A DNA stretch of 29,797 nucleotides from a virus. Its lineage: Duplodnaviria > Heunggongvirae > Uroviricota > Caudoviricetes. Under the pieces are notes generated by a model that was not told the origin of the DNA, ran no database searches, and was given only the letters and a program-made list of their open reading frames with translations. The stretch lies in IMG/VR virus record IMGVR_UViG_2671180378_000015, one strand, 5' to 3'. Shown here one piece after another: positions 2,786 to 24,731 of this stretch (position 1 is its first letter; every line of letters begins with the position of its first letter). Both the position numbers and the translations under genes were made by a program.

Positions 2786-3835
2786 GTGCGGGTATTACTT
2801 AGACCTGTTCTGGTGCCTGAGCTTGGGCTGGTGGTCCTTAAGCCGGGCCGTGAATCCATACAGATATTTCATAATCCTCGAGTGCTGGTGGAACCGGAAC
2901 CAAAAAGCATGCGTAATCTGCCATCCGGAGTCGTTCCTGCCGTTCGCCAGCCGCTGGCGGAAGACAAAACATTGCTGCCGTTTTTTAGTAACGAACGGGT
3001 GATTCGTGCTGCTGGCGGCGTTGGCGCATTGTCCGACTGGCTATTACGTCATGTTACATCCTGCCAGTGGCCTAATGGCGATTACCATCACACTGAAACA
3101 GTCATTCACCGTTATGGTACCGGCGCAATGGTGTTGTGCTGGCACTGCGACAACCAACTGCGTGACCAGACATCGGAATCACTGGAGCTGCTTGCTCAAC
3201 AAAATCTGACAGCATGGGTGATTGACGTCATCCGTCACGCAATAAGCGGTACGCAGGAGCGGGAATTATCTTTGGCTGAATTATCCTGGTGGGCGGTCTG
3301 CAATCAGGTGGTGGATGCACTACCTGAGGCTGTATCGCGTCGTTCGCTGGGATTACCAGCGGAAAAAATCTGCTCGGTGTACCGCGAAAGCGACATCGTA
3401 CCGGGAGAGCAGACCGCCACCAGCATATTGAAACAACGCACAAAAAATCTTGCACCGTTGCCTTACGCCCACCAGCAACAAAAATCACCACAGGAAAAGA
3501 CGGTGGTAAGCATCACCGTTGATCCAGAGTCTCCGGAATCTTTCATGAAGCTGCCTAAACGTCGCCGCTGGGTTAAGGAGAAATACACACGTTGGGTTAA
3601 GACACAGCCGTGTGCTTGCTGCGGTATGCCAGCCGACGATCCGCATCATCTGATTGGTCACGGGCAGGGCGGAATGGGAACAAAAGCACATGATCTCTTT
3701 GTGTTGCCTTTGTGCAGAAAGCATCACAACGAGCTGCATACGGATACAGTGGCATTTGAAGATAAGTATGGCTCCCAACTGGAGCTGATATTTCGTTTTA
3801 TCGATCGCGCGCTGGCAATTGGCGTACTGGCGTAA
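2786..3835 (+). CDS. ydfU: YdfU, DUF968-type protein with C-terminal Cys/His-rich HNH-like motif (349 aa from GTG)
   Basis: Open frame 2747-3835; preferred start GTG 2786 with GGAGG 5 nt upstream; C-terminus CACCGMPADDPHHLIGHGQGG...LPLCRKHHNELH resembles an HNH/His-Me finger. Confidence 0.7.
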   Translation: MRVLLRPVLVPELGLVVLKPGRESIQIFHNPRVLVEPEPKSMRNLPSGVVPAVRQPLAEDKTLLPFFSNERVIRAAGGVGALSDWLLRHVTSCQWPNGDYHHTETVIHRYGTGAMVLCWHCDNQLRDQTSESLELLAQQNLTAWVIDVIRHAISGTQERELSLAELSWWAVCNQVVDALPEAVSRRSLGLPAEKICSVYRESDIVPGEQTATSILKQRTKNLAPLPYAHQQQKSPQEKTVVSITVDPESPESFMKLPKRRRWVKEKYTRWVKTQPCACCGMPADDPHHLIGHGQGGMGTKAHDLFVLPLCRKHHNELHTDTVAFEDKYGSQLELIFRFIDRALAIGVLA

Positions 3836-3848
3836 GTGGAGAACGAGC

Positions 3849-4601
3849 ATGAACCTTGAAGCCTTACCAAAATATTACTCCCCAAAATCTCCAAAATTGA
3901 GCGATGACGCTCCAGCGACAGGCACCGGTTGTTTAACAATTACGGATGTAATGGCAGCGCAGGGGATGGTGCAGTCGAAAGCACCACTTGGGTTGGCCTT
4001 ATTTCTGGCAAAAGTTGGTGTTCAGGACCCTCAGTTTGCGATTGAAGGCCTGCTAAATTACGCGATGGCACTGGATAACCCGACATTGAACAAATTGAGT
4101 GAAGAAATCCGGTTACAGATTATTCCTTACCTCGTGAATTTTGCCTTTGCTGATTACTCCAGGTCTGCGGCAAGTAAGGCTCGCTGTGAGCATTGTTCAG
4201 GTACGGGATTTTATAATGTATTGCGCGAAGTGGTGAAACACTACCGACGCGGGGAATCTGTAATCAAGGAAGAATGGGTGAAGGAACTATGTCAGCATTG
4301 CCATGGTAAGGGTGAAGTCAGCACAGCGTGCAGAGGGTGTAAGGGTAAAGGGATTGTTCTGGATGAAAAAAGAACCCGGTTTCATGGCGTACCGGTATAT
4401 AAGATTTGTGGGCGTTGTAATGGAAACCGGTTTAGTCGTTTACCGACCACGCTGGCACGACGTCATGTCCAGAAGCTGGTACCAGACCTGACCGATTATC
4501 AGTGGTATAAGGGGTATGCGGACGTCATTGGTAAACTGGTAACAAAGTGCTGGCAGGAAGAAGCATACGCGGAAGCGCAATTGAGGAAGGTGACGAGATA
4601 A
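3849..4601 (+). CDS. quuQ: Late-gene antiterminator Q (phage-82/21-type, Cys-rich zinc-binding) (250 aa)
   Basis: ORF track; start taken at MNLEALPKYY (ATG 3849); CxxC...CxxC clusters (CEHCSGTG, CQHCHGKG, CRGCKGKG, CGRC); position immediately upstream of a promoter-terminator pair. Confidence 0.85.
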   Translation: MNLEALPKYYSPKSPKLSDDAPATGTGCLTITDVMAAQGMVQSKAPLGLALFLAKVGVQDPQFAIEGLLNYAMALDNPTLNKLSEEIRLQIIPYLVNFAFADYSRSAASKARCEHCSGTGFYNVLREVVKHYRRGESVIKEEWVKELCQHCHGKGEVSTACRGCKGKGIVLDEKRTRFHGVPVYKICGRCNGNRFSRLPTTLARRHVQKLVPDLTDYQWYKGYADVIGKLVTKCWQEEAYAEAQLRKVTR

Positions 4602-4632
4602 ATGATTTTTGCTGAAGATGGCGACATGATGT

Positions 4633-4661
4633 TTGCATTTTTCAAAAAATATGGATAAAAT
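4633..4661 (+). promoter_or_regulatory. Candidate late promoter pR' (Q-modified)
   Basis: TTGCAT (4633-4638) - 17 nt - TAAAAT (4656-4661), about 30 nt downstream of Q stop, followed within 60 nt by a terminator, as expected for a Q-utilisation unit. Confidence 0.45.
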
Positions 4662-4706
4662 TTTTTCAACGATGGGCTTTGTATACCCGACGTTAAGAAA
4701 AAGTAG

Positions 4707-4735
4707 AAAACCCGCTGATGAGCGGGTTTTGTGCT
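4707..4735 (+). terminator. Candidate tR' terminator downstream of late promoter
   Basis: aaaacccgct gatg agcgggtttt stem-loop plus U-tract. Confidence 0.6.
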
Positions 4736-5022
4736 TTAAATGGGGCAATGGTAATGTTGAATCTCATCCCGGGACTCATGTCTGTTAACTTATTATTTAG
4801 CTGGTGACTTGGTTATTTGCCTGATGTTTAAAATGTTTTCTTCCAGTACAATGTCCCTAAACACAATGAGTCTGCTTATTATATTATTAGCAGAGCTATT
4901 ACGGCCAAAGTACAGCATAAGCTTTTAAAGCCAATCAACCAGTCATCAAGACAGACGGGGTTATTCATAAAAACTCTCCATGTGTGATCCGATGGGGCCT
5001 GAAATTAAAGCTTTAATATAGC

Positions 5023-5235
5023 TCATGAAAGGTAAACATTGGCAGCTGAAGGGCCACGCAGACCATTTATCCGGCAAAATTCCACGCGTAATCCGGTGGT
5101 AATTTCTTCTGCATCGCGGAGATTGAGCGCTGAAACATGAAGCTGGACATCGATACGACCATCGGATGGGGTGATAAGACCCTTGCCGCTTTTGCCGTCA
5201 AAGGTTTTGACAATTCCTGTCATTTTACGGGACAA
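5023..5235 (-). CDS. cspF: CspF cold-shock-domain protein paralog (70 aa)
   Basis: ORF track [40 protein letters not shown]...; CSD fold signature. Confidence 0.85.
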
Positions 5236-5339
5236 AAAAATTCCTTAATACTGATAACTTGGCGCACTATACACACGTTCCTGAAGAAAGCTATAGTTTT
5301 TTGATGGGGTTGAAGATGGCTGGATGTCTAAAATAAACA

Positions 5340-5368
5340 TTGCTTCATATGTTCAACTATGCGTTAAT
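5340..5368 (+). promoter_or_regulatory. Candidate cspB promoter with long (about 165 nt) 5' UTR
   Basis: TTGCTT - 17 nt - GTTAAT; the same architecture and an identical ATGCGTTAATG core recur upstream of cspI. Confidence 0.4.
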
Positions 5369-5535
5369 GATTGCGTCGGTTTGAAGAACAGACGATATAC
5401 GAAGTAGTTTACTAAAGCAGTTCTCATTTCAGGTGTTATTCACTTATTCCTTCTTTGAGTCTCTCCAATTAAGTACGAAGTCGTTTCTGTTATGCAAACC
5501 ATTTATGCCGAAAGGCTCAAGTTAAGGAATGTAGA

Positions 5536-5751
5536 ATGTCAAATAAAATGACTGGTTTAGTAAAATGGTTTAACGCTGATAAAGGTTTCGGCTTTATTTC
5601 TCCTGTTGATGGTAGTAAAGATGTGTTTGTGCATTTTTCTGCGATTCAGAATGATAATTATCGAACCTTATTTGAAGGTCAAAAGGTTACCTTCTCTATA
5701 GAGAGAGGTGCTAAAGGTCCTGCAGCAGCAAATGTCATCATTACTGATTAA
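5536..5751 (+). CDS. cspB: CspB cold-shock protein (71 aa)
   Basis: ORF track [38 protein letters not shown]...; RNP1-like KGFGFI motif. Confidence 0.9.
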
Positions 5752-6032
5752 AATTCATCGCTCGTCTGTATACGATAACGAAGAAGGCTGATGCCTGAGT
5801 AGAGATACGGACAGAGTAGTGAATATTGGATCTCTTTAATAAAAAGTAAGGAGGTCCAATACATGAAACAATGGCTAGCATATTTGGCAAAATCTTAATC
5901 AGGAAAAGTATGCTAACCATTGTGGTGAAGTGCAGGTTTGCTGCATGAATAGTTTCACAGCAGAAGCTAACTGCTGGCATCGCAAAACAAAGTGCGTAAG
6001 TGGATGACTCCCACAAAAAGCACCACAATCTC

Positions 6033-6056
6033 AAACCCGCTCAGGCGGGTTTTTTA
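6033..6056 (+). terminator. Rho-independent terminator downstream of cspB (possibly bidirectional)
   Basis: aacccgc tcag gcgggtt followed by tttttt. Confidence 0.6.
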
Positions 6057-6114
6057 TTATCTGCTTTAAATATATTATTAAAATATAAAAAATACTTGTT
6101 ACTAATAAAATCAA

Positions 6115-6285
6115 TCAGGCTACAGCTTTAAGATTTGTCTGGAATACTTTGTTGCAATGAGGGCAGATCAAAAGGGCACCTTTTTGTACTCTTGAAAAAC
6201 TGTGTTCTGACTCTTGGGTGCAGTTTGGGCAGGAACATTTAACGAGATAATTACGGCGTGATTTTGAGTCTTTACGTTCTGACAT
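6115..6285 (-). CDS. Small Cys-rich (putative zinc-ribbon) protein, 56 aa; not in ORF track
   Basis: Hand translation of minus strand: MSERKDSKSRRNYLVKCSCPNCTQESEHSFSRVQKGALLICPHCNKVFQTNLKAVA; RBS AGGAAAAgcct before ATG; two Cys clusters CxCxxC ... CxxC. Confidence 0.45.
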   Translation of the reverse strand: MSERKDSKSRRNYLVKCSCPNCTQESEHSFSRVQKGALLICPHCNKVFQTNLKAVA

Positions 6286-6504
6286 AGGCTTTTCCTGTAT
6301 AATGGCCGTATACAGTACACTAAATATGAAAACATTTCTCGTATTATTATTTTATATATGACTTTCTTTCAAAATAATTACTCACATTTTTAATGTGTAT
6401 GTTTCTTTAGCGCCGTTGAGAACAACGTGTGCTGTCAAAACTACCCCGTAGACTCCGATCTTTTTCAAACATATTGCACCATCCGTGTACATCGGGGTGA
6501 GGAT

Positions 6505-6720
6505 ATGAAATCAATGGATAAGTTAACAACAGGTGTTGCCTATGGCACATCGGCGGGTAATGCTGGTTTCTGGGCATTACAGTTACTCGATAAAGTAACT
6601 CCGTCACAGTGGGCTGCAATCGGTGTGCTGGGTAGCCTGGTTTTTGGCCTGCTGACGTATCTGACAAATCTTTATTTCAAGATTAAAGAAGACAGGCGTA
6701 AGGCTGCGAGAGGAGAGTAA
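6505..6720 (+). CDS. essQ: Phage-21-type class II holin (pinholin) with dual-start MKSM motif (71 aa)
   Basis: [71 protein letters not shown]; two TM segments, charged C-terminus; RBS GGGGTGAGGA before ATG 6505. Confidence 0.85.
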
Positions 6721-6724
6721 TCCA

Positions 6725-7032
6725 ATGACTCAAGACTATGAACTGGTTGTGAAAGGAGTCCGTAATTTTGAGAATAAAGTTACGGTAACTGTAGCCTTAC
6801 AGGACAAGGAACGCTTTGACGGTGAAATTTTTGACCTGGATGTCGCCATGGACCGTGTTGAAGGAGCTGCGCTGGAGTTTTATGAGGCAGCAGCCAGAAG
6901 GAGCGTCCGGCAAGTCTTCCTGGAAGTAGCAGAAAAATTGTCAGAAAAAGTTGAGTCTTATCTGCAGCATCAGTACTCCTTTAAGATTGAAAATCCTGCC
7001 AATAAGCACGAGCGTCCTCATCATAAATATAT

Positions 7033-7036
<4 letters not shown>
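6725..7036 (+). CDS. ydfR: YdfR-like protein (DUF1327), 103 aa
   Basis: ORF track MTQDYELVVKGVRNFENKVTV...; position between holin and endolysin as in Qin. Confidence 0.7.
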
Positions 7037-8060
<1,024 letters not shown>

Positions 8061-8635: not shown

Positions 8636-8834
8636 GGTAGACAATATTACAAACCATATTCACTTTAGATGCCCGTGTTGTCATGGTTCCCAGTATAGAA
8701 CATCATCTTTTGATGTTTCTGACATGAATCCTTTCGGGGCAAAATGTATCTTTTGTAAATCAATGATGATTACATTTGATAATATTTCACAATACTTAAA
8801 TGCCAGCCGTCTGTCGTTGGATTTAAAAAAGTGA
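8625..8834 (+). other. Open frame encoding a second Cys-rich zinc-ribbon-like peptide lacking a canonical start (possible non-canonical start or decayed paralog)
   Basis: Frame reads ...HFRCPCCHGSQYRTSSFDVSDMNPFGAKCIFCKSMMITFDNISQYLNASRLSLDLKK stop 8832-8834; first ATG (8724) lies after the first Cys cluster; strong terminator immediately downstream. Confidence 0.3.
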
Positions 8835-10944: not shown

Positions 10945-11123
10945 AAAAAGGCTAGTTTTTGCATTTCCATGGCGGCGGCAGCATGTTTGGTAATTTATTG
11001 ATAATTAAAAGTTATTTCTCTTTTCACCTGTACAATATTTCTTTCTCCCTGTCATTAGACCAGTTTGCAATTAATTGAAATATATAAATAAACATGATTT
11101 TCACCTGCCAGATGGAGTTGCTT

Positions 11124-11651
11124 ATGTCAAATGTGAGCGGGATCGGTGATGCTTATTACTGGAGTGTTTTTAAAATCGCTGAGGCCTTTGGGCTTCACCG
11201 GGACACAGTAAAAAAACGGCTCCTCGCGGCTAACACTCCTGTGGCTGCGACTGTCAGGGGGAACCCCGTTTACGCCCTGCAGCATGTCGGGCCAGCCCTG
11301 TTTAGTGTGAAGCATGAGGCAGCAGACTCTGTTCATGATCCATCCCGTATGGAGCCGAAAGAGAGAAAGGACTGGTACCAATCTGAAAATGAAAGGATCA
11401 AGCTGGAAAAGGAGCAGCGAAAACTCATCCCCGTTGATGAAGTAGTCATCGTCTATTCGTCCATGAGAAAGGCTGTCGTCCAGGTTCTGGAGACAATTCC
11501 GGATGTTCTTGAACGCGATTGCGCCCTGACTCCTCAGGCCGTCGGCGTTGTACAGCAGGCCATTGATGACCTGCGATACACTCTTCAGGAAAAATCCTAC
11601 GAGGCTTGTGCTGCTGAATTAATTCCTGATGAGGAAGGAGAGAGTCTCTAG
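11124..11651 (+). CDS. Terminase small subunit (Nu1-like, winged-HTH DNA-binding N-terminus)
   Basis: ATG 11124 with GGAG RBS; N-terminal HTH-like IAEAFGLHRDTVKKRLLAANTPV similar to lambda Nu1; immediately upstream of large terminase. Confidence 0.7.
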   Translation: MSNVSGIGDAYYWSVFKIAEAFGLHRDTVKKRLLAANTPVAATVRGNPVYALQHVGPALFSVKHEAADSVHDPSRMEPKERKDWYQSENERIKLEKEQRKLIPVDEVVIVYSSMRKAVVQVLETIPDVLERDCALTPQAVGVVQQAIDDLRYTLQEKSYEACAAELIPDEEGESL

Positions 11652-11659
11652 GAGGAATA

Positions 11660-13759
11660 ATGGGTTTTTCATCAGCCCGAAATTTGGGAAGGGACATATC
11701 GGCAGGATTTTCCCCACCACGTCGCATGCCGATTTCGGAGGCTGTTAAAAAATTCATGCGTGTTCCCAAGGGGGCTGGTAACTCGGTGCCATGGGATCCT
11801 GAACTGACACCCTACATCATTGAGCCCATGAACTGCCTGGCATCGCGTGAATACGATGCGGTGATTTTTGTTGGTCCTGCGCGAACAGGGAAGACCATTG
11901 GTCTGATCGATGGATGGATTGTCTATACCATCGTTTGCGATCCTTCGGACATGCTCGTTGTGCAGATGACCGAAGATAAGGCCCGCGAGCATTCTAAAAA
12001 GCGCCTCGACAGAACGTTCAGAAGCAGTGCGGCGGTAAAGAAAAGAATGAGTCCACGTCGTAACGACAATAATGTCCATGATAAGACGTTCAGGGATGGC
12101 TCGTTCCTTAAAATTGGTTGGCCCTCGGTCAACATTATGTCGTCGTCGGATTACCGGTTTGTCGCCTTAACCGATTACGACCGTTTTCCGGAGAATATCG
12201 ACAGCGAGGGTGATGGTTTCTCCCTGGCCTCAAAACGTACCACCACATTTATGTCCGCTGGGATGACTCTGGTGGAGAGCTCGCCGGGACGTGACATCTG
12301 CGACAGCAAATGGCGACGTAAGTCGCCTCATGAAGCGCCACCGACGACTGGTATTCTTTCCCTTTACAATCGTGGTGACCGCCGCCGCTGGTACTGGTCA
12401 TGTCCGCACTGCGGTGAATATTTTCAGCCAGCCATGGATGCCATGACCGGCTACCGTAATGAACCGGATCCCTTTAAAGCCAGTGAGGCGGCGTATCTAC
12501 TTTGCCCGCACTGCAGCGGCATTATCACTGCGGAGAAAAAGCGTGAGCTCAATAGTGCAGGAGTCTGGTTGCGTGAAGGTCAGGTCATTGATCGTAACGG
12601 CAACGTTTCCGGTGAACCGCGCCGCTCCCGTATCGCCAGTTTCTGGATGGAAGGGCCAGCTGCTGCGTATCAGACCTGGGCGCAACTGGTTTACAAATTA
12701 CTGACTGCAGAACAGGAGTATGAAGCGACAGGAAGCGAAGAAACACTCAGGGCGGTTATCAACACCGACTGGGGATTGCCTTATCTTCCTCGTGCCAGCA
12801 TGGAGCAACGAAAAAGTGAACTGCTTGAGCAGCGGGCAGAGCCAGTTCCTTCCCGCAGTGTGCCGGATGGCGTTAATTTCCTTGTGGCGACAGTGGATGT
12901 GCAGGCGGGACGTCATCGCCGTTTTGTGGTTCAGGTAACGGGCTATGGCAGTCGTGGCGAACGCTGGATTATTGATCGTTACAACATCACGCAGTCATTG
13001 CGCAGTGACTGCGACGGGGAGAGCCAGCGAATTGATCCGGCCAGCTATCCGGAAGACTGGGATGTCCTGCTGACGGATGTTTTTCATAAAAGCTGGCCGC
13101 TGGCCTCCGATCCTTCTCAACAAATGCGACTGATGGCAATGGCGGTGGACTCCGGCGGTGAAGACGGGGTCACTGATAATGCCTATAAATTCTGGCGTCG
13201 TTGCCGTCGTGATGGCCTTGGTAAACGTATTTACCTGTTTAAGGGTGACAGCATCCGGCGCGCAAAACTGATCAGCCGTACATTCCCTGATAACACCGGA
13301 CGAACGGGCCGCCGGGCGCAGGCCGCAGGTGATGTGCCGCTCTGGCTTCTTCAGACGGATGCCCTGAAAGACCGGGTGAATAACGCGTTATGGCGTGACT
13401 CGCCAGGTCCAGGCTATGTGCATTTCCCTGACTGGCTGGGGAGCTGGTTTTACGACGAACTGACGTATGAAGAGCGGAGCAGTGACGGGAAATGGAGTAA
13501 GCCGGGTCGCGGTGCCAACGAAGCTTTTGACCTGATGGTGTATGCCGAGGCTCTGGTCATTCTGCATGGATACGAAAAGATCCGCTGGCCGGATGCACCG
13601 GAGTGGGCGAGCCGGGAGACCTGGCTGGAGTGTGTCCAGGACAGTACCGAACCGTCATCCTCACCGGAACCGGTATCCACGCCTGTTAAAAAACAAAAAC
13701 GGAAGAAAACAGTAACTGACGATGTTAACCCCTGGCTGACTTCCGGAGGATGGTTATGA
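11660..13759 (+). CDS. Terminase large subunit (lambda gpA-like), 699 aa
   Basis: ORF track 699 aa; size and position; RBS AGGAGGAATA before ATG. Confidence 0.85.
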   Translation: MGFSSARNLGRDISAGFSPPRRMPISEAVKKFMRVPKGAGNSVPWDPELTPYIIEPMNCLASREYDAVIFVGPARTGKTIGLIDGWIVYTIVCDPSDMLVVQMTEDKAREHSKKRLDRTFRSSAAVKKRMSPRRNDNNVHDKTFRDGSFLKIGWPSVNIMSSSDYRFVALTDYDRFPENIDSEGDGFSLASKRTTTFMSAGMTLVESSPGRDICDSKWRRKSPHEAPPTTGILSLYNRGDRRRWYWSCPHCGEYFQPAMDAMTGYRNEPDPFKASEAAYLLCPHCSGIITAEKKRELNSAGVWLREGQVIDRNGNVSGEPRRSRIASFWMEGPAAAYQTWAQLVYKLLTAEQEYEATGSEETLRAVINTDWGLPYLPRASMEQRKSELLEQRAEPVPSRSVPDGVNFLVATVDVQAGRHRRFVVQVTGYGSRGERWIIDRYNITQSLRSDCDGESQRIDPASYPEDWDVLLTDVFHKSWPLASDPSQQMRLMAMAVDSGGEDGVTDNAYKFWRRCRRDGLGKRIYLFKGDSIRRAKLISRTFPDNTGRTGRRAQAAGDVPLWLLQTDALKDRVNNALWRDSPGPGYVHFPDWLGSWFYDELTYEERSSDGKWSKPGRGANEAFDLMVYAEALVILHGYEKIRWPDAPEWASRETWLECVQDSTEPSSSPEPVSTPVKKQKRKKTVTDDVNPWLTSGGWL

Positions 13760-13968
13760 ACCAGAATGATATCGAAGCCATGATTCAGCGTTATACGGAA
13801 GCTGAAATGGCGGTGCTGGACGGAAAATCCGTCACCTTTAATGGTCAGCAGATGACCATGGAAAACTTATCTGAGATCCGGCAGGGACGGCAGGAGTGGG
13901 AGCGCCGCCTTGCGGCTCTGATTACACGACGACGGGGGCATCCCGGGTACCGGCTGGCGAGGTTCTGA
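13756..13968 (+). CDS. Head-tail joining protein (gpW-like), about 70 aa
   Basis: Small ORF between terminase and portal; start overlaps terminase stop and its stop overlaps the portal start (TGATG); RRRG motif near C-terminus as in lambda W. Confidence 0.55.
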   Translation: MNQNDIEAMIQRYTEAEMAVLDGKSVTFNGQQMTMENLSEIRQGRQEWERRLAALITRRRGHPGYRLARF

Positions 13969-15476
13969 TGGCAATTCTTGATGATGTGATTGGCGTTTTT
14001 TCACCAGGATGGAAAGCGGCAAGGCTGCGTTCCCGTGCGGTGATCCAGGCTTATGAGGCCGTAAAAACGACGCGGACACACAAAGCCCGACGGGAGAACC
14101 GAACTGCCGACCAGTTAAGCCAGTACGGGGCCGTGTCGTTACGTGAGCAGGCCCGTTACCTTGATAACAACCACGATCTGGTTATTGGTGTATTTGACAA
14201 GCTGGAAGAACGGGTGGTGGGGAAAAACGGGATTATTGTCGAGCCACATCCGGTATTACGCAATGGGGCCATTGCCCGTGACCTGGCTGCGGAGATTCGC
14301 ACCCGATGGAGTGAATGGTCTGTCAGCCCGGAAGTCACCGGGCAGTTTACCCGTCCGATGCTGGAACGTCTGATGCTTCGTACCTGGCTGCGCGATGGTG
14401 AGGTGTTTGCCCAGATGGTTTCCGGGCGCATAAACAGCCTGGCGCCTTCTGCCGGTGTTCATTTCTGGCTGGAGGCGCTCGAGCCGGACTTTATTCCCAT
14501 GACTAGTGATGAGAGCAACAGGCTGAATCAGGGCGTGTTTGTTGATGACTGGGGGCGTCCCGAAAAATATCTGGTGTATAAAAGCCGTCCCGTATCCGGA
14601 CGGCAGATGGAAACCAAAGAAGTGGATGCAGAGCGAATGCTGCATCTTAAATTTGTTCGCCGTCTGCACCAGATGCGCGGGACGTCTTTGTTGTCCGGTG
14701 TGCTGATCCGCCTCAGTGCCCTGAAAGAATATGAAGATTCTGAGCTGACTGCAGCAAGGATCGCCGCTGCTCTGGGGATGTACATCAGGAAAGGCGACGG
14801 GCAGAGCTATGAACCGGATGGTAATGGCAGAAAGGAGAATGAACGTGAGCTTACCATTCAGCCGGGCATTATTTACGACGATCTGAAACCCGGCGAAGAA
14901 ATCGGAATGGTGAAGTCGGATCGCCCCAATCCTAACCTTGAAACTTTTCGTAATGGTCAGTTGCGTGCCGTGGCGGCGGGCAGTCGTCTGAGTTTTTCCA
15001 GTACAGCGCGCAACTATAACGGCACTTACAGCGCCCAGCGTCAGGAGCTGGTTGAATCCACTGATGGCTACCTGATCCTGCAGGACTGGTTTATTGGTGC
15101 CGTCACCCGCCCGATGTATCGTGCATGGCTGAAACAGGCTGTGGCATCCGGTGTTATCAGGCTACCCCGCGATCTTGACCGTTCTTCACTGTATACCGCG
15201 GTGTATTCCGGACCAGTGATGCCGTGGATTGACCCTGTTAAGGAGGCTGAGGCCTGGAAAATCCAGATTCGTGGTGGAGCGGCGACAGAATCAGACTGGG
15301 TACGTGCTGGTGGTCGTAATCCGGATGATGTCAAACGTCGGCGCAAGGCCGAAATTGATGAAAACCGCAAGCTGGATCTGGTATTTGATACCGATCCGGC
15401 CAGTGATAAAGGAGGCAGTAGTGCCGCAACGAAACGACAGGAGCCGCAGCACACCGACGACCAGTCCGAAGAATAA
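13968..15476 (+). CDS. Portal protein (lambda gpB-like), about 502 aa
   Basis: ORF track frame 13896-15476; start taken at ATG 13968 (MAILDDVIGVFSPGW) overlapping W stop; size and position. Confidence 0.8.
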   Translation: MAILDDVIGVFSPGWKAARLRSRAVIQAYEAVKTTRTHKARRENRTADQLSQYGAVSLREQARYLDNNHDLVIGVFDKLEERVVGKNGIIVEPHPVLRNGAIARDLAAEIRTRWSEWSVSPEVTGQFTRPMLERLMLRTWLRDGEVFAQMVSGRINSLAPSAGVHFWLEALEPDFIPMTSDESNRLNQGVFVDDWGRPEKYLVYKSRPVSGRQMETKEVDAERMLHLKFVRRLHQMRGTSLLSGVLIRLSALKEYEDSELTAARIAAALGMYIRKGDGQSYEPDGNGRKENERELTIQPGIIYDDLKPGEEIGMVKSDRPNPNLETFRNGQLRAVAAGSRLSFSSTARNYNGTYSAQRQELVESTDGYLILQDWFIGAVTRPMYRAWLKQAVASGVIRLPRDLDRSSLYTAVYSGPVMPWIDPVKEAEAWKIQIRGGAATESDWVRAGGRNPDDVKRRRKAEIDENRKLDLVFDTDPASDKGGSSAATKRQEPQHTDDQSEE

Positions 15477-15489
15477 TTCCTGGTTCAGG

Positions 15490-17448
15490 ATGCAGGCTGG
15501 TCACCAGAGTGACGCGGATATTTATATTTATGACGAGATTGGTTTCTGGGGTGTTACAGCGAAGCAGTTTATCAGTGATCTGAATGCACTGGGCGATATC
15601 ACCCACATTAATCTCCATATTAATTCACCGGGTGGCGATGTCTTTGAAGGCATCGCCATTTTTAATGCGCTGAAAACACATGGTGCGTCCATTACCGTTT
15701 ATGTCGACGGTGTGGCGGCGTCAATGGCGTCGGTCATTGCGATGGTAGGAAACCCGGTCATTATGCCGGAAAACTCCTTCATGATGATTCATAAACCATT
15801 TGGCTTTACGGGCGGTGATGCGGAGGACATGCGCACCTATGCCGACCTGCTCGATAAAGTTGAGGCGGTTCTGTTACCCGCTTATGCACAGAAAACCGGG
15901 AAAACCACCGATGAAATTGCTGCCATGCTGGCGGATGAGACCTGGATGTCCGGTGCCGAATGTCTGGCACAGGGATTTGCTGATCAGGTGACACCAGCCG
16001 TTAAGGCAATGGCATGTATTCAGTCAAAACGTACAGAGGAATTTAAAAAGATGCCGGAATCCATTCGAAATATGATTACTCCGCCACGCAACAGTGCTCC
16101 ACGCGTACAGGATGATGGACCTGCAGCCTCCCGGACGCCAGTGCAGGCAGCAGCACCCGTGGTGGATGAAAACAGCATCCGTGCGCAGGTCCTGGCAGAG
16201 CAAAAAGCGCGTGTAAACGGTATTAATGATCTGTTTGCCATGTTTGGCGGGCGTTATCAGTCGTTGCAGGCTCAGTGTCTTGCCGATCCTGAATGTTCGC
16301 TGGAGCAGGCCCGCGAAAAGCTGTTGAACGAGATGGGGCGCGAGTCCACGCCATCCAATAAAAATACCCCGGCTCATATTTATGCCGGTAACGGTAATTT
16401 TGTGGGGGACGGGATCCGCCAGGCGCTGATGGCGCGCGCCGGGTTTGAAAAAACTGAACGTGATAATGTCTACAACGGGATGACCCTGCGTGAATATGCC
16501 CGTATGTCACTGACTGAACGTGGTATTGGTGTTTCCAGTTATAACCCGATGCAGATGGTCGGTGCGGCGTTCACACACAGTACGTCTGACTTCGGTAATA
16601 TTCTGCTGGATGTTGCGAACAAAGCCATTCTGCAGGGCTGGGAAGATGCCCCTGAAACCTATGAACAGTGGACGCGGAAAGGTCAGTTGTCTGATTTTAA
16701 AATTGCCCATCGTGTGGGTATGGGGGGCTTCAGTGCTCTGCGTCAGGTGCGTGAAGGGGCAGAATATAAATACGTCACCACCGGAGATAAACAGGCCACT
16801 ATTGCACTGGCGACCTATGGCGAGCTGTTCAGTATCACCCGTCAGGCCATTATCAATGATGATCTGAATATGCTGACCGATGTCCCGATGAAGCTGGGCC
16901 GTGCGGCGAAATCCACTATTGCCGATCTGGTTTATGCCATTCTGACGTCTAACCCGAAAATCTCCACAGATAATGTAAGTCTGTTCGATAAAGCGAAACA
17001 TGCAAACGTACTGGAGAGCGCGGCAATGGACGTGGCATCGCTGGATAAAGCCCGCCAGTTGATGCGCGTTCAGAAAGAGGGTGAGCGTCATCTGAATATT
17101 CGTCCTGCGTTCGTACTGGTACCGACGGCGATGGAGTCTGTTGCTAACCAGGTCATTCGCTCCTCAAGTGTCAAGGGGGCTGACATTAACGCCGGTATTA
17201 TTAACCCGGTGAAAGATTTTGCGACCGTTATTGCAGAGCCTCGTCTTGATGATAACAGCCAGACCACCTTCTACCTGGCTGCGTCCAAAGGCTCCGATAC
17301 GATTGAAGTGGCTTATCTCAACGGTGTGGATACGCCATATATTGATCAGATGGAGGGCTTCAGTGTGGATGGCGTGACAACGAAAGTGCGTATTGACGCT
17401 GGTGTTGCGCCAGTTGATCACCGCGGCCTGGTGAAATGTACGGCGTAA
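15490..17448 (+). CDS. Prohead protease (ClpP/S14-like) fused to scaffold-like linker and major capsid protein (about 652 aa)
   Basis: N-terminal ClpP-like motifs (INSPGGDVFEGIAIFNAL, VAASMASVIA with catalytic-type Ser); C-terminal 330 aa resembles major capsid proteins; start ATG 15490 just after portal stop. Confidence 0.75.
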   Translation: MQAGHQSDADIYIYDEIGFWGVTAKQFISDLNALGDITHINLHINSPGGDVFEGIAIFNALKTHGASITVYVDGVAASMASVIAMVGNPVIMPENSFMMIHKPFGFTGGDAEDMRTYADLLDKVEAVLLPAYAQKTGKTTDEIAAMLADETWMSGAECLAQGFADQVTPAVKAMACIQSKRTEEFKKMPESIRNMITPPRNSAPRVQDDGPAASRTPVQAAAPVVDENSIRAQVLAEQKARVNGINDLFAMFGGRYQSLQAQCLADPECSLEQAREKLLNEMGRESTPSNKNTPAHIYAGNGNFVGDGIRQALMARAGFEKTERDNVYNGMTLREYARMSLTERGIGVSSYNPMQMVGAAFTHSTSDFGNILLDVANKAILQGWEDAPETYEQWTRKGQLSDFKIAHRVGMGGFSALRQVREGAEYKYVTTGDKQATIALATYGELFSITRQAIINDDLNMLTDVPMKLGRAAKSTIADLVYAILTSNPKISTDNVSLFDKAKHANVLESAAMDVASLDKARQLMRVQKEGERHLNIRPAFVLVPTAMESVANQVIRSSSVKGADINAGIINPVKDFATVIAEPRLDDNSQTTFYLAASKGSDTIEVAYLNGVDTPYIDQMEGFSVDGVTTKVRIDAGVAPVDHRGLVKCTA

Positions 17449-17472
17449 ACGTCGCAGACAACAACTCTGATG

Positions 17473-17520
17473 GCCCGTAAGGGCTTTTTTTGTACCTGAA
17501 ATCAGCCCCTGAACGGGGCT
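17473..17520 (+). promoter_or_regulatory. Two consecutive stem-loops after the capsid gene (attenuator or mRNA-stabilising structure)
   Basis: gccc gtaa gggc plus T7 tract (17473-17491) and agcccc tgaac ggggct (17504-17520). Confidence 0.45.
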
Positions 17521-17534
17521 GTGCGGAGACAGTT

Positions 17535-17858
17535 ATGGCAAAGAATTTTGTAGAAGAAGGAAAAACGGTGGCGATTGTTGCCAGTGCAGCCATCAGCAGC
17601 GGAGATCTGGTGCAGGTGGGGGATGTTTTTGCGGTGGCGCTGACCGATATTCCACAGGGAGAAACAGGCGACGGCATAACCGAAGGTGTGTTTATGCTGC
17701 CTAAGCTGAAAACGGATGACATGAAAACGGGTAAGAAGGTTTATCTGAAGTCAGGAAAAGTTCAGCTGACTAACAGCGGCTCTGAGCCGCTGGTCGGGGT
17801 TGTCTGGGCAGATGCCGGAACCAGTGCAGAAGAAGTGCCGGTAAAACTCAATGTCTGA
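17535..17858 (+). CDS. Small head protein, possibly decoration/cement (DUF2190-like), 107 aa
   Basis: ATG 17535 with GGAG RBS; Gly/Val-rich small protein directly after capsid gene. Confidence 0.45.
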   Translation: MAKNFVEEGKTVAIVASAAISSGDLVQVGDVFAVALTDIPQGETGDGITEGVFMLPKLKTDDMKTGKKVYLKSGKVQLTNSGSEPLVGVVWADAGTSAEEVPVKLNV

Positions 17859-18126
17859 TCCCTTTTCCCGGCTGGCAGCGCGTATGGATGCGATCACGGT
17901 CAGAAAGATGGGAAAGACAGCCTCGATTAATGATGTCGATATGATTGTGATCCCGGGAGAAACACTGGCAGAGCTGAATGCTCTGTCCGGACCTGCGGTC
18001 TCTCTGGTGGTGTTTTCTTCGGGATACCGCCCACGGCGCGGGGATCGCGTTGTTTATGACGGACAACAATGGACGGTCACACGGCATGAACGTTTTAACG
18101 GTAAGCCAATGATCTTTATTGAGTAA
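17851..18126 (+). CDS. Putative head completion / head-tail adaptor protein (91 aa)
   Basis: ORF track; position between capsid module and tail gene Z. Confidence 0.4.
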   Translation: MSDPFSRLAARMDAITVRKMGKTASINDVDMIVIPGETLAELNALSGPAVSLVVFSSGYRPRRGDRVVYDGQQWTVTRHERFNGKPMIFIE

Positions 18127-18137
18127 AGAGGTGTGGG

Positions 18138-18716
18138 ATGAAGGGGCTTGAGAATGCCATCCGCAATCTGAACAGCCTTGATACCCGTATGGTGCCACAG
18201 GCCAGCGCATGGGCGATAAACCGTGTGGCACAGAAAGCGGTCTCGGTTGCCACCCGGCAGGTTGCCGGGAATACCGTTGCGGGAGATAACCAGGTGAAAG
18301 GGATCCCCCTGAAACTGGTACGTCAGCGTGTCCGGGTGTTTAAAGCCAGTCCGTCAGGAAAAATGACGGTCAGGATCCGCGTTAACCGGGGCAATCTGCC
18401 CGCCATTAAGCTGGGGACAGCCCGGGTCAGACTGGCCCGGCGTGGTGGAAAACTGCAGTACCGTGGCAGTGTGCTGAAGGTGGGTAAATATCTTTTCCGG
18501 GATGCGTTTATTCAGCAACTGGCGAATGGTCGCTGGCATGTGATGCGACGTATTGATGGCAAAAATCGTTACCCCATTGATGTGGTGAAAATCCCGCTGT
18601 CCGGATCGCTGACACAGGCATTTGAAGATGCCCGCGACCACATCATTGCTGCGGAAATGCCGAAACAGCTGGGGTATGCACTAAAACAACAACTGAGGTT
18701 ATGGCTGACCCGATGA
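18138..18716 (+). CDS. Tail completion protein (lambda gpZ-like), 192 aa
   Basis: 192 aa, same length and position as lambda Z; RBS AGAGGTGTGGG before ATG. Confidence 0.55.
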   Translation: MKGLENAIRNLNSLDTRMVPQASAWAINRVAQKAVSVATRQVAGNTVAGDNQVKGIPLKLVRQRVRVFKASPSGKMTVRIRVNRGNLPAIKLGTARVRLARRGGKLQYRGSVLKVGKYLFRDAFIQQLANGRWHVMRRIDGKNRYPIDVVKIPLSGSLTQAFEDARDHIIAAEMPKQLGYALKQQLRLWLTR

Positions 18717-19114
18717 ACCGACATACACAAATCCGCCAGGCCGTACTGGCACGCCTTCGGGAACAGTGTGGAGACAGCGCCACGTTTTTTGACGGGCTTC
18801 CGGCATTTATTGATGCGCAGGAACTGCCTGCCGTGGCGGTGTGGCTGAGTGATGCTCAGTACACCGGAAAAATGACGGATGAAGATGACTGGCAGGCTGT
18901 TCTGCATATTGCCGTCTTCATCCGGGCACAGGCACCGGATTCAGAGCTGGATATGTGGATGGAGAGCACCATTTTCCCTGCCCTGAATGATATACCGGCA
19001 CTTTCCGGACTCATCGACACCCTGATCCCACTCGGTTTTAACTATCAACGTGATAATGAGATGGCCACCTGGGCGATGGCGGAAATCACGTACCAGATCA
19101 CGTACACGAATTAA
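18713..19114 (+). CDS. Tail terminator protein (lambda gpU-like), 133 aa
   Basis: ATFFDGLPAFIDAQELPAVAVWLSDAQYTG...DSELDMWMES...IPALSGLI...ITYQITY closely matches remembered lambda gpU; ATGA overlap with Z. Confidence 0.8.
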   Translation: MNRHTQIRQAVLARLREQCGDSATFFDGLPAFIDAQELPAVAVWLSDAQYTGKMTDEDDWQAVLHIAVFIRAQAPDSELDMWMESTIFPALNDIPALSGLIDTLIPLGFNYQRDNEMATWAMAEITYQITYTN

Positions 19115-19124
19115 GGAGGTGGTA

Positions 19125-19868
19125 ATGACCACACCAAATCCACTGGCAAAGACGAAAGGTGCGGGGACGACGTTCTGGATGTATACCGGCAACGGCGATG
19201 CGTTTGCGAACCCTTTGTCGGACACTGACTGGCTGCGTCTTGCGATGGTGAAGGATCTGCAACCTGGCGAAATGACCGCTGATGCAGAAGATGACACTTA
19301 TCTCGATGATGAAGATGCAGACTGGAAAACGACAACCCAGGGGCAGAAATCCGTTGGTGATACTTCGGCGACGCTGGCCTGGCGTCCGGGTGACAGCGGG
19401 CAGAAAAAACTGGTTCAGTTGTTCGACTCCGGTGAAGTCTGCGCGTTTCGTATCAAATATCCCAACGGCACTGTTGATGTTTTCCGTGGCTGGCTGAGCT
19501 CACTGGGTAAAACCATTGCCTCAAAAGACGTGATGACCCGCACTGTGAAAATCAGCGGTGTGGGGCGTCCGTATCTGGCAGAGGAAGGCACTGAAACCGT
19601 GAGCGTTACCGGGCTGACAGTATCACCGGCGTCTGCCAGTGTAAAAGTGGGAGCAACCACCACGCTGACCTTTACAGTAAAACCTGACGGAGCCAGTGAC
19701 AAAGCGATCAGTGTGCATTCGTCAGATCCACAGACTGCCACGGTTACCCTGAACGGACTTGTGGCCACGGTAAAAGGCGTGAAGCAGGGCAGTGTCAGCA
19801 TTGTGGGCATGACCGCTGACGGGAATTTTGTGGCTGTGACTGCGGTGACTGTCAGCGCAGCAGGTTAA
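19125..19868 (+). CDS. Major tail tube protein (lambda gpV-like) with C-terminal Ig-like domain, 247 aa
   Basis: KGAGTTFWMYTGNGDAFANPLSDTDW...YLDDEDADW...PNGTVDVFRGW matches lambda gpV; RBS AAGGAGGTGG before ATG. Confidence 0.85.
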   Translation: MTTPNPLAKTKGAGTTFWMYTGNGDAFANPLSDTDWLRLAMVKDLQPGEMTADAEDDTYLDDEDADWKTTTQGQKSVGDTSATLAWRPGDSGQKKLVQLFDSGEVCAFRIKYPNGTVDVFRGWLSSLGKTIASKDVMTRTVKISGVGRPYLAEEGTETVSVTGLTVSPASASVKVGATTTLTFTVKPDGASDKAISVHSSDPQTATVTLNGLVATVKGVKQGSVSIVGMTADGNFVAVTAVTVSAAG

Positions 19869-19888
19869 CAGGACGATACTCATCATTT

Positions 19889-19912
19889 GCCCCGGTTATT
19901 CGGGGCTTTTTT
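19889..19912 (+). terminator. Stem-loop with U-tract after major tail gene (partial terminator)
   Basis: gccccg gttatt cggggc followed by tttttt. Confidence 0.55.
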
Positions 19913-19925
19913 GCAGGTGGAGAAC

Positions 19926-20315
19926 ATGATGTTTCTGAAACAGGACACGTTTAATTATGAAAAACAGTCCGTGGTGCTCAGTGAGCTGTCCGGGCTGCAG
20001 AGAATTGAATATCTGACGTTTGTTCAGCAGCGAACGGCAAAGTTTGATGCCGGGGAGGGAGAACTGCCGGAGGCTGAACGACAGATTGCTTTTCTGCGGA
20101 TGGGGATGGATATCAATGCCTGGCTGGTTTCCCGCTCACTGTGGAATGCGGATCAGTCTAAGGATGTAGAGACGCTTTGCGCATCCGTTATTACAACATG
20201 GTCGTATGATGCCCTGGGTGCGGGGGCGGAGATGGTTCTGTCGCTGAGCGGTATGGGGGCCATTGATAATGCCGTGGATGATGAGCATGAGGCGCTGACG
20301 CCGGAAAAGTCCTGA
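19926..20315 (+). CDS. Tail assembly chaperone G (lambda gpG-like)
   Basis: MMFLKQDTFNYEKQSVVLSELSGLQRIEYL resembles lambda gpG N-terminus; RBS GGTGGAG before ATG. Confidence 0.75.
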   Translation: MMFLKQDTFNYEKQSVVLSELSGLQRIEYLTFVQQRTAKFDAGEGELPEAERQIAFLRMGMDINAWLVSRSLWNADQSKDVETLCASVITTWSYDALGAGAEMVLSLSGMGAIDNAVDDEHEALTPEKS

Positions 20316-20653
20316 CGCGGGAAATGCAGTTTGTCATGCGGCTTGCCCGGGAGTTCCGGCGGGCAGACTGGCGGCGGATGCTGTCGGAAATGTCGGCCAC
20401 TGAGCTTGGTGAGTGGGGCGATTATTTCCGGATGCAGAGCTTCAGTGATGTGTGGATGGATGCGCAGTTTGCCTCGCTGAAGGCATTGATCGTGAGAATG
20501 GTGTCCGGCAGCAGTGATGCTGCGGTGGCTGATTTCAGCCTTTTACCGGAAGAGAACGGGATACCGGAGCGAACGGACGAAGAACTGATGCATCTTGGGG
20601 AAGGTATTTCCGGAGGTGTGCGTTATGGACCAGATAGCCAACCTGGTCATTGA
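20291..20653 (+). CDS. T segment of the G-T tail assembly chaperone, expressed by -1 programmed frameshift from G
   Basis: -1 frame open from 20291, overlapping the last 8 codons of G; candidate slip site G GAA AAG at 20303-20309. Confidence 0.6.
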   Translation, partial: GADAGKVLTREMQFVMRLAREFRRADWRRMLSEMSATELGEWGDYFRMQSFSDVWMDAQFASLKALIVRMVSGSSDAAVADFSLLPEENGIPERTDEELMHLGEGISGGVRYGPDSQPGH

Positions 20654-23600
20654 TTTGGGGATTGATGCGGCAGAGTTTAAAAATGAAATTCCCCGTATCA
20701 AAAACCTTCTGAATGGTGCAGCCAGCGATGCAGAACGGTCTTCTGCCCGTATGCAGCGTTTTATGGAGCGTCAGACTCAGGCCGCCCGGCAGACAACGCA
20801 GGCAGCTTCTTCGGCTGCAACAGCCGCATCCGTCCATGCGCAGACGGTGGAGAAGAACGCACAGGCTCATGAACGCATGGCCCGCGAGGTGGAGAAAACC
20901 CGCCAGCGCATGGAGGCACTGAGCCAGAAAATGCGCGAGGAACAGGCGCAGGCCATGGCTCTGGCGGAGGCTCAGGATAAAGCGGCTGCTGCGTTTTATC
21001 GTCAGATTGACAGTGTGAAACAGGCCAGTGCGGGGCTGCAGGAATTACAGCGTATTCAGCAGCAGATCCGACAGGCCAGAAACAGTGGCGGGATTGGTCA
21101 GCAGGATTATCTGGCGCTGATTTCTGAGGTTACTGCGAAAACCCGTGTTCTTACACAGGCTGAGGAAGAGGCTACCCGACAGAAAGTGGCGTTTATCCGT
21201 CAGCTTAAAGAGCAGGCAACCCGCCTGAATCTTTCATCTTCTGAGTTGCTTCGTGCTAAGGCAGCCCAGCTGGGGGTAAGCAGTGCTGCAGAAGTGTATA
21301 TCCGCAAAATGGAGCAGGCAGGAAAAGCCACGCATTCGCTGGGTCTGAAAAGTGCAGCAGCCCGCCAGGAGATAGGCGTTCTGATAGGTGAACTGGCCCG
21401 CGGCAATTTAGGGGCGCTGAGGGGATCCGGGATAACGCTGGCTAACCGTGCCGGATGGATAGACACACTGATGTCACCGAAAGGCATGATGCTTGGCGGG
21501 GTTATTGGCGGTATTGCCGCGGCCGTCTATGGTCTGGGTAAAGCCTGGTATGACGGTCAGAAGGAGGGGGAAGAATTTAACCGCCAGTTGTCGCTGACGG
21601 GGCATTATGCCGGAGTCACTGCCGGGCAGCTGTGGACGCTCAGTCGTGCTATTTCCGGGAATGGTATCACGCAACATGCTGCAGCCGGTGCGCTGGCTCA
21701 GGTGGTGGGGAGTGGTGCATTTCGTGGAAACGATATCGGTATGGTGGCGAGAGTTGCCGCACAGATGGAGCGATCGGTTGGCCAGTCGGTCAGCGATACC
21801 ATAAATCAGTTTAAGCGGCTGAAGGATGATCCTGTAAATGCCGCGAAGGCTCTGGACAATGAGCTGCATTTTCTTACTGCCACTCAGCTTGAGCAGATAC
21901 GCGTCCTTGGGGAGCAGGGGCGGTCCAGTGATGCTGCACGGATAGCCATGTCTGCACTGGCAGAGGAAACCGGTCGGCGTACTGCGGATATTGATAATAA
22001 CCTCAATGCGCTTGGCAGTACGCTGAAGTATCTGTCTGATTTGTGGAGTCGTTTCTGGGATGCGGCCATGAATATTGGTCGTGAAGACTCGCTGGATGAA
22101 CAGATTGCCGCTTTACAGGAGAAAGTGTCGCGGGCGAAAAGACTCCCCTGGACGGCATCATCTTCTCAGGTTGAATACGATCAGCAGCGTCTTAACGATC
22201 TTCAGGAGAAAAAACGCCAGAAGGATTTGCAGGATGCAAAAGAGCAGGCAGAGCGGAATTATCAGGAGCAACAGAAACGCCGTAATGCTGAAAATGCTGC
22301 ACTGAACCGGATGAATGAAACGGAAGCAGCACGACATCAGCGTGAAATTGCGCGTATTAATGCCATGCAGTACGCCGATCAGGCTGTCAGGGATGCGGCG
22401 ATACAACGTGAAAATGAACGTTACGAGAAAGCCCTGGCATCCGGTAAGAAAAAAACACGCGAAACCCGTAATGATGAGGCCACCCGGTTATTGCTGCAGT
22501 ACAGTCAGCAACAGGCACAGGTGGAAGGACAGATTGCTGCTGCCAGACAGTCAGCAGGCATTGCCACGGAAAGGATGACAGAAGCGCATAAACAGCTTCT
22601 GGCTCTGCAGCAGCGCATCAGCGACCTGGACGGGAAAAAACTGACGGCAGATGAAAAGAGTGTGCTGGCCCGTAAAGATGAACTGATTCAGGCACTGACG
22701 CTGCTGGATGTAAAACAGCAGGAGCTTCAGAAACAGACGGCACTCAACGAGCTGAAGAAAAAAACAATTCAGCTGACCAGTCAACTGGCTGAAGAAGAGC
22801 GCGCTCAGCGTCAGCAACATGACCTGGATATCGCCACGGTGGGTATGGGTGATCAGCAGCGACAGCGATATCAGGTACAACTGAGTCTTCGCCAGAAATA
22901 CCAGCAACAGCTGGAGCAGTTGAGGCGGGATAGTGAGCAGAAAGGGACATATAACACGGATGACTACAGAAAGGCCGAGCAGGCGCTGACGGAGAGCCTG
23001 AACCGACAACTGAATGAGAATCGCCGTTACTGGCAACAGCTTGAAGTTGTGCAGGGTAACTGGAAAAACGGAGTCCTGCGTGCATTTCAGGATTTTACCG
23101 TGGATGCAGATAATACGGCAGAAACAGCAGAACAGGTGTTCTCGTCAGCCTTCAGCAACATGGGAAATGGCCTGGCAACTTTTGTCACTACCGGCAAACT
23201 CAATTTCAAATCCTTCACCTCTTCTGTGCTGTCAGATATGGCGAAAATCCTGGCGCAGGCAACCATGATGAAATCGATAAAAGGGATTGGCAGTGTACTG
23301 GGATTTGATCTCAGCAGCCTTTCCCTGAATGCCAATGGGGGGATTTATCAGTCTGCTGATTTGAGTCGTTACAGTGGCACGGTGGTTAACCGTCCGACGT
23401 TTTTTGCTTTTGCAAAAGGCGCGGGTGTGATGGGGGAAGCGGGACCTGAAGCCATTCTGCCATTGCGTCGTGGTGCTGACGGTAAGCTGGGGGTTGTGGC
23501 GGATATTGGGGGGTCAGGTATGGCGATGTTTTCCCCGCAGTACAACATCGAGATCAATAACGATGGCACGAACGGGCAGATAGGTCCGGCTGCCCTGAAG

Positions 23601-24019: not shown

Positions 24020-24028
24020 GAGGCTCTG

Positions 24029-24727: not shown

Positions 24728-24731
24728 TCCC

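Follow-up and report, generated by a model that had tools for sequence, protein, structure and literature searches.

The DNA analysed here is a stretch of 29,797 nucleotides (nt), referred to below as the window, from a virus of the class Caudoviricetes (IMG/VR record IMGVR_UViG_2671180378_000015). Between the cold-shock gene cspB and the holin gene essD it carries, on the minus strand, a short open reading frame (ORF) with an ATG start, whose exact product is MSERKDSKSRRNYLVKCSCPNCTQESEHSFSRVQKGALLICPHCNKVFQTNLKAVA. It is convergent with cspB and divergent from essD (Table 1). An original prediction, made from the letters of the sequence alone, had described it as an unlisted 56-amino-acid ORF with a good ribosome-binding site, and both the exact reading frame and a conserved Shine-Dalgarno sequence were found. 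The ORF is ynfU (b4776), an already known and annotated gene. The guess of a possible counterpart among the recently annotated small proteins of K-12 was right, while "unlisted" was true only of the ORF track with its 60-amino-acid limit, since RefSeq annotates ynfU.

The ynfU gene of a Qin-type prophage

A megablast search with positions 5500..6800 showed that many chromosomes of O26:H11 and other Shiga-toxin-type strains of Escherichia coli carry DNA that is 100% identical. In the identical O26:H11 genomes the ORF is labelled "putative zinc-binding protein YnfU" (WP_001405948.1 in strain 11368). Its counterpart in K-12 MG1655 is b4776, in the cryptic prophage Qin, between essQ and cspB. The two proteins share 55 of 56 residues, the sole change being D6 here and N6 in K-12, and the aligned DNA of about 530 nt shows 5 differing columns over the shared 522 nt. 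The gene order cspF-cspB-ynfU-ess-ydfR-rrrQ-rzpQ is common to the window and K-12. Of 5426 complete E. coli genomes, 1649 were matched by a 201-nt probe over the gene, with an identity of at least 99% and the label ynfU in nearly all cases. The protein scores 107.7 bits against Pfam PF23499 "YnfU" (cut-off 27; residues 1-49 of 49) and 79.8 bits against NCBIfam NF038384 "YnfU family zinc-binding protein" (cut-off 36). Profile score, two CPxC knuckles about 18 residues apart together with a SEHSF-RVQKG block, and orthology with b4776 all place it in the YnfU family.

Translation of ynfU in K-12 has been shown in the literature. YnfU was found in 2019 by ribosome profiling of initiation complexes stalled with retapamulin (Weaver et al., bioRxiv 10.1101/511675). 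In western blots of chromosomally tagged proteins (sequential peptide affinity tag, SPA), none of the other newly found small proteins reached the level of YnfU. It alone among them had a recognisable motif, "a pair of zinc knuckles" made of two CPXC, and PSIPRED matched it moderately well to the PA0128 zinc domain (bioRxiv 10.1101/511675). In RiboReport, Ribo-seq coverage of ynfU is complete and a peak marks its initiation site (bioRxiv 10.1101/2021.06.08.447495); the original prediction had named ribosome density as a check, and for K-12 such density is therefore published. A transposon-reporter screen, PIRT-Seq, recovered ynfU independently (PMC12350097). SProtFP also lists YnfU, and a pangenome co-occurrence cluster places ynfU with other Qin and Rac genes. 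Our literature search on the function or partners of YnfU found no functional study, the mentions being of discovery, benchmarking or lists.

The length of the ORF is by itself no evidence for a gene, because dozens of chance ORFs of 25-100 amino acids surround ynfU in this AT-rich region, and one of 55 amino acids (6168..6335, minus strand) overlaps it in another frame. Conservation is the test. A scan with one genome per species gave 80 loci, from which 73 coding sequences were extracted, 68 of them unique as DNA. These loci belong to Escherichia, Shigella, Citrobacter, Klebsiella, Raoultella, Kosakonia, Enterobacter, Salmonella, Atlantibacter, Yokenella, Phytobacter, Kluyvera, Leclercia and others, and the frame is intact in the 73 extracted orthologues from many genera. 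Among the 68 unique sequences the median pairwise ratio of non-synonymous to synonymous substitution rates (dN/dS) is 0.12; the mean proportion of synonymous differences (pS) is 0.74, which is saturated, versus 0.21 for non-synonymous differences (pN). The other two sense frames are free of stops in 1-2 of the 68 orthologues and the antisense frames in 0-3. The original prediction had staked its case on conservation of the frame and of the cysteines, and both the frame and the CPxC cysteines are conserved.

Beyond these loci, a word-indexed search of 5.8 billion proteins returned 50 relatives of YnfU, all of them small and, where named, from Enterobacteriaceae. The family is small and its taxonomic range narrow, since no more than 44 proteins at E <= 0.001 emerged when 1.84 billion cluster representatives were searched exhaustively with HMMER. 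As judged from these sequence comparisons, ynfU is shown to be under strong purifying selection and confined to Enterobacteriaceae and close relatives. Four loci carry labels from elsewhere (L004, a Veillonella parvula metagenome-assembled genome (MAG); L026, Vagococcus sp.; L040, Kocuria sabuli; L042, a Bacillota MAG). Their neighbouring genes are typical of Enterobacteriaceae, and contamination of these assemblies by enterobacterial contigs is the most likely explanation.

Conserved residues and predicted fold

YnfU is a basic protein, with 10 Lys/Arg versus 4 Asp/Glu, and has five cysteines among its 56 residues. Four of them form the knuckles C19-P-N-C22 and C41-P-H-C44. Residue conservation was read from 30-39 aligned family members. 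P20, C22, L39 and C44 are invariant even with distant members aligned, and C19, C41, P42, S26, H28, S29, K35 and F48 are at least 90% conserved, distant members included. The remaining cysteine, Cys17, is replaced in distant homologues. Since Cys17 is not kept while the CPxC cysteines are, the ligand set corresponds to the two CPxC knuckles, and zinc would likely be held by Cys19, Cys22, Cys41 and Cys44. The original prediction had read the cysteines as a CxCxxC cluster and a CxxC cluster; these cysteines are all present, but the "CxCxxC" cluster did not hold as a ligand set.

The idea of a small zinc-ribbon-like protein fared better, being supported by PF23499, by NF038384 and by the zinc knuckles described by Weaver et al. 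The AlphaFold model of YnfU is a generic zinc ribbon preceded by a disordered basic N-terminal tail; its predicted local distance difference test score (pLDDT) was 63.6 with 30 sequences and rose to 74.3 after distant homologues were added. The predicted fold has the two beta-hairpin knuckles, with two Cys ligands each, that define a C4 zinc ribbon. According to this model, the core of YnfU (about residues 14-49) is predicted to be a C4 zinc ribbon holding one zinc ion across both CPxC knuckles. A literature search for metal analysis of YnfU found none. Within Enterobacteriaceae the block SEHSF-RVQKG hardly varies, if at all. In the model, S26-E-H-S-F-x-R-V-Q-K-G36 makes up the second strand together with a short helix and is likely an interaction surface.

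Signals, neighbours and linkage to cold-shock genes

The coordinates of ynfU, of the signals around it and of the other features of the window discussed here are given in Table 1.

Table 1. Features at and around ynfU in the window
Feature	Position	Strand	Basis or remark
ynfU coding sequence, putative C4 zinc-ribbon small protein	6115..6285	-	56 codons + stop; annotation in identical genomes and K-12, profile matches, dN/dS
Shine-Dalgarno AGGAA	6292..6296	-	read from sequence; AGGA (6296..6293) 7 nt before ATG
Candidate promoter -10, GTG then TACTGT	6312..6320	-	inferred from upstream alignment anchored on ATG
Alternative sigma-70-like match TTGAAA, 18-nt spacer, AATAAT	6343..6372	-	consensus scan, 10/12; Escherichia-type sequence only
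GC-rich hairpin AAACCCGC / GCGGGTTT	6033..6052		between convergent cspB and ynfU; terminator scan: + strand only
cspB	5536..5751	+	
cspA thermoregulator RF01766	5375..5767	+	cspB leader and coding sequence; 161.6 bits, E = 1.7e-43
11-codon ORF with Shine-Dalgarno	5849..5897	+	
holin essD	6505..6720	+	
Q-type antiterminator gene	3819..4601		
ynfQ	8646..8834	+	
Large late-gene-sized ORFs	11094..29494	+	699, 526, 739, 1031 and 1152 amino acids

The region upstream of ynfU has a layout that is shared across genera, with GTGTA(T/A)GGT, about 20 nt, CAGGA(A/G), 6-8 nt and the ATG. At the Shine-Dalgarno position, CAGGA[AG] is kept across genera in about 70 orthologous loci. The GTGTA(T/A)GGT block lies about 35 nt before the ATG, with an implied 5' untranslated region (UTR) of about 20 nt. 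From its sequence it may be an extended -10 promoter with a short leader, or an activator site. An (A/G)AGC(A/T)A element is also conserved about 17 nt upstream of this block; it fits the sigma-70 -35 consensus poorly. Sigma-70-like sites are no commoner in the ynfU region than in shuffles, which applies to the alternative match listed in Table 1. A possible hairpin in the 5' UTR, TGTATAC...TATACA just before the Shine-Dalgarno sequence, was discarded, as it has z = -0.7 against shuffles and is not conserved outside Escherichia.

Downstream, the GC-rich hairpin lies about 60 nt past the ynfU stop. On the plus (cspB) strand it has a T6 tail and z = -5.2; on the ynfU strand the stem is followed by UUUGAGAUU. 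Read in this way, it would act as a strong intrinsic terminator of cspB, while its effect on ynfU would be weak at best. The original prediction had the two convergent genes sharing a bidirectional terminator; the convergence is correct, but termination is convincing only in the cspB direction. An Rfam scan of 4000..8000 with a permissive E-value gave nothing overlapping ynfU, and Trp_leader and P9 appeared at the terminator hairpin below threshold. The only significant Rfam match was the cspA thermoregulator, an element that a cold-inducible csp gene would be expected to have.

The 363-nt spacer between the cspB and ynfU stops contains, upstream of the cspB terminator, an 11-codon ORF (MKQWLAYLAKS*) with a perfect Shine-Dalgarno sequence, TAAGGAGGT, 7 nt before its ATG. 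It is unannotated in K-12. We found it only in Escherichia/Shigella Qin-type loci, with the non-synonymous variants MKQWPAYLAIT and MKQWPAYLAKS. It could be a mini-ORF in the long cspB 3' UTR, or due to chance.

In the window, ynfU lies in the interval that separates the Q-type antiterminator gene from the lysis cassette and is oriented against late transcription. The region from Q to the lysis genes is a classic site for insertion of cargo genes in lambdoid phages, for example the stx genes. Homologues of ynfU adjoin lysis genes in three different phage backgrounds. In Klebsiella phage ST13-OXA48phi12.4 ynfU is divergent from the holin gene, as in Qin-type prophages, and in another lambdoid contig a homologue lies between Rz and Nu1. 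Isolated phages with ynfU include HannyBb, Tritos and 2H10, while in phage PHB10 a trio of ynfU, a cold-shock gene and a cspF-like gene adjoins the integrase. Outside Escherichia and Citrobacter prophages ynfU is found mainly on chromosomes; in Klebsiella and Raoultella, for instance, it adjoins the bud (acetoin) genes. Distant family members occur in unrelated metabolic neighbourhoods, such as next to lactate or oxidoreductase genes.

When the 80 loci were grouped by their other flanking genes into 30 distinct context classes, no constant operon partner of ynfU was found across the classes. A csp paralogue was present within about 1.5 kb of ynfU in 54 of the 80 loci and in 23 of the 30 classes. 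In the usual layout a cspB-like gene is convergent with ynfU and is followed by a divergent cspF-like gene. From these contexts, ynfU looks like a small autonomous mobile cargo gene that often moves with csp genes and does not belong to the phage core.

Some other genes in these neighbourhoods deserve mention. The prophage in the window also carries ynfQ, a YmcF-like (PF23641) cysteine-rich ORF (CPCC...CIFC) directly downstream of cspI, and thus a second csp-linked putative zinc-binding small protein. In 9 loci from other genera, YmcF-like ORFs are likewise present, about 680 nt upstream of ynfU. Another conserved ORF, about 76 amino acids long (MTSKVLVFFNSQPVKAVDRNASDKTVDCEYPNGEKATL...), divergent from ynfU and about 640 nt upstream, occurs in 26 of the 80 loci (for instance 3837..4067, minus strand, in locus L046) and has no match in Pfam or NCBIfam. 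In phage HannyBb (L083 3585..6168, PP925841.1), about 17 "hypothetical protein" calls of 30-55 amino acids run along one strand on the side of ynfU away from the lysis genes, where the window has cspB and cspF; this run looks like over-annotation or an unrecognised non-coding array.

The original prediction had taken the surrounding prophage to be cryptic. Unlike K-12 Qin, the window carries a full set of large late-gene-sized ORFs (Table 1), the one of 699 amino acids being the phage terminase large subunit according to the matching O26:H11 record, so the prophage is not obviously cryptic. Judged by its ORFs, it may be less degraded than that label suggests.

Possible role and comparison with known zinc ribbons

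We consider it highly probable that ynfU is a genuine, translated, stand-alone cargo ("moron") gene of a Qin-type lambdoid prophage, with a predicted C4 zinc ribbon as its product. The gene faces against the late operon and has a ribosome-binding site of its own as well as a promoter-like region. The product would start with a disordered tail rich in Arg and Lys (residues 1-13), followed by the C4 ribbon core, where zinc would presumably be bound.

What such a protein might do is a more tentative matter. One possibility, which we favour although we hold it rather less likely to be true than false, is that YnfU acts as a lone small adaptor in a cold-shock Csp setting; its target would be a conserved macromolecule of the host, with RNA or the ribosome as the most likely candidates. 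The basic tail, together with the invariant hairpin-helix surface, could make contact with RNA or the ribosome, and YnfU would act in the same setting as the cold-shock RNA chaperones that travel along with it (cspB-like and cspF-like). On this view YnfU would not be an enzyme, nor would it form part of the phage structure or of the lysis machinery. It is tempting to go further and to propose that ynfU, the cspB-like gene and the cspF-like gene form a mobile three-gene module of Enterobacteriaceae, in which YnfU binds RNA, ribosomes or Csp and modulates translation or mRNA structure at low temperature, and that lambdoid phages captured the whole module as lysogenic-conversion cargo. We regard this extended proposal as speculative and unlikely.

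Several observations weigh against a role as an RNA- or ribosome-binding adaptor. As evidence for RNA binding, a net positive charge counts for little. All similarities of YnfU to characterised zinc-ribbon families are sub-threshold and generic, so the fold carries no specific functional information. The csp linkage is absent in distant family members and in several Kosakonia, Atlantibacter and Klebsiella loci; as it is patchy, co-transfer rather than shared function could explain it. In the literature we found no cold-shock expression data for ynfU and no experiment on zinc binding by YnfU or on any partner.

Other explanations were weighed against the cargo-gene and adaptor readings. A chance ORF, or a remnant decaying in a cryptic prophage, might be suspected from the many chance ORFs of similar length in this AT-rich region and from the defective state of Qin in K-12. 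However, this explanation is excluded by the frame being intact in 73 orthologues, by the low dN/dS and the closed alternative frames, by the conservation of the cysteines and of SEHSF-RVQKG, and by the detection of the protein in K-12. YnfU, or antisense transcription through its gene, could instead serve the phage by tuning late-gene or lysis expression or prophage maintenance. The lysis genes beside ynfU in Qin-type prophages, in ST13-OXA48phi12.4 and in the Rz-Nu1 contig, and its presence in HannyBb, Tritos and 2H10, would be consistent with such a regulator. Nevertheless, most family members reside on chromosomes and have no phage gene closer than 5 kb, the stretch from Q to the lysis genes is a classic cargo site, and the comparison with PHROG families gave no convincing match (best E-value 0.0026, to a family of unknown function). 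We therefore think a phage-serving regulator improbable.

Binding to a protein partner by mimicry seems to us more improbable still. YnfU might dock like the PyrI zinc domain on the catalytic trimers of aspartate transcarbamoylase, or act as a DNL-type (Tim15/Hep1-like) escort finger for Hsp70. PyrI chains were the top Foldseek matches of the first YnfU model (30-35% identity over 40-50 columns, E >= 0.4), PyrI_C is weakly matched by 10 of 30 family members (best Pfam E = 0.016), and two homologues bear the Joint Genome Institute (JGI) name "aspartate carbamoyltransferase regulatory subunit". We rejected the PyrI zinc domain (PF02748) on the basis of non-significant E-values and of an hhalign probability of 9.6%, obtained against an E. 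coli PyrI sequence entered by hand. Tim15 (2e2z) is the best PDB sequence match (E = 0.013), in the knuckle region only and with the common pattern C..C...S.H..S...KG..L..CPHC. The DNL zinc finger (PF05180; Tim15/Zim17/Hep1) was likewise rejected, as YnfU scores 13.4 bits versus 27, has no DNL motif and ends 12 residues past Cys44. Metal handling, by which YnfU would be a zinc buffer or chaperone or a thiol redox switch and not a structural ribbon, ranks marginally lower even than mimicry. Five cysteines in 56 residues could suit it, a line evolved with silver nanoparticles carries a ynfU/cspB polymorphism (PMC13306010), and a preprint transcriptome list groups ynfU with up-regulated metal-related genes. 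But that polymorphism is intergenic, of low frequency and confined to a single line, and a single C4 site has no buffering capacity. Moreover, the most conserved residues other than cysteines form the non-ligand surface SEHSF-RVQKG, which points to partner binding, as in the adaptor role that we tentatively prefer.

The present results show that reading the raw sequence without tools recovered a genuine small gene missed by ORF tracks filtered by length. The gene itself has been published and annotated since 2019-2020. Our additions are modest: purifying selection across genera, a ligand set refined to CPxC...CPxC, and the recurrent linkage of ynfU to csp genes. Finding a partner or a phenotype of YnfU would be a modest advance too; it would add to the characterised small proteins of bacteria and perhaps identify a new cold-shock accessory factor.

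Comparisons through Pfam, PDB sequences, Foldseek and hhalign found no specific functional relative of YnfU, and the anti-phage defence profiles of PADLOC gave 0 families. The ATPase domain of the lambda gpA terminase (PF05876) matches 24 of 30 family members (best E = 2.4e-5), below the gathering score and over the embedded zinc-finger stretch only, and was treated as generic. The ribosome-associated small zinc ribbons, namely archaeal/eukaryotic eL42 (L44e) and a 70S zinc-finger protein of M. acetivorans (PDB 9o17_AZ), resemble YnfU in being basic proteins of about 50-90 amino acids with C4 knuckles. YnfU has a local motif match to L44e, CPxC....EHS.S..KG (E = 0.032), and 33% identity to 9o17_AZ over 39 aligned residues. 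The resemblance to eL42 was rejected, being sub-threshold and limited to the knuckle region.

The N-terminal zinc ribbon of PhnA/YjdM (PF08274; PA0128 of P. aeruginosa, PDB 2akl) is also a small C4 ribbon with a knuckle spacing similar to that of YnfU. The Pfam match has E = 1.3e-4 and 22.4 bits, under the cut-off of 30.8, and matches in 23 of 30 family members are all sub-threshold; PA0128 is Foldseek rank 2 for the YnfU model. Unlike PhnA/YjdM, YnfU is without the C-terminal PhnA domain, and since PA0128 itself has no known function, the likeness is uninformative on that of YnfU. YmcF/YnfQ (PF23641) is another small protein with CPxC...CxxC, encoded beside the cold-shock gene cspI in the same prophage as ynfU. 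However, ynfQ lies directly downstream of cspI on the same strand, whereas ynfU is convergent with its csp gene, and homology between the two was rejected (hhalign probability 1.8%; PF23641 absent from the Pfam matches of YnfU). The closest known system is thus YnfU of K-12 itself (b4776), the same gene, syntenic between cspB and the holin gene and with the same two CPxC knuckles, carried there by the cryptic Qin and here by a prophage with a full set of large late-gene ORFs.
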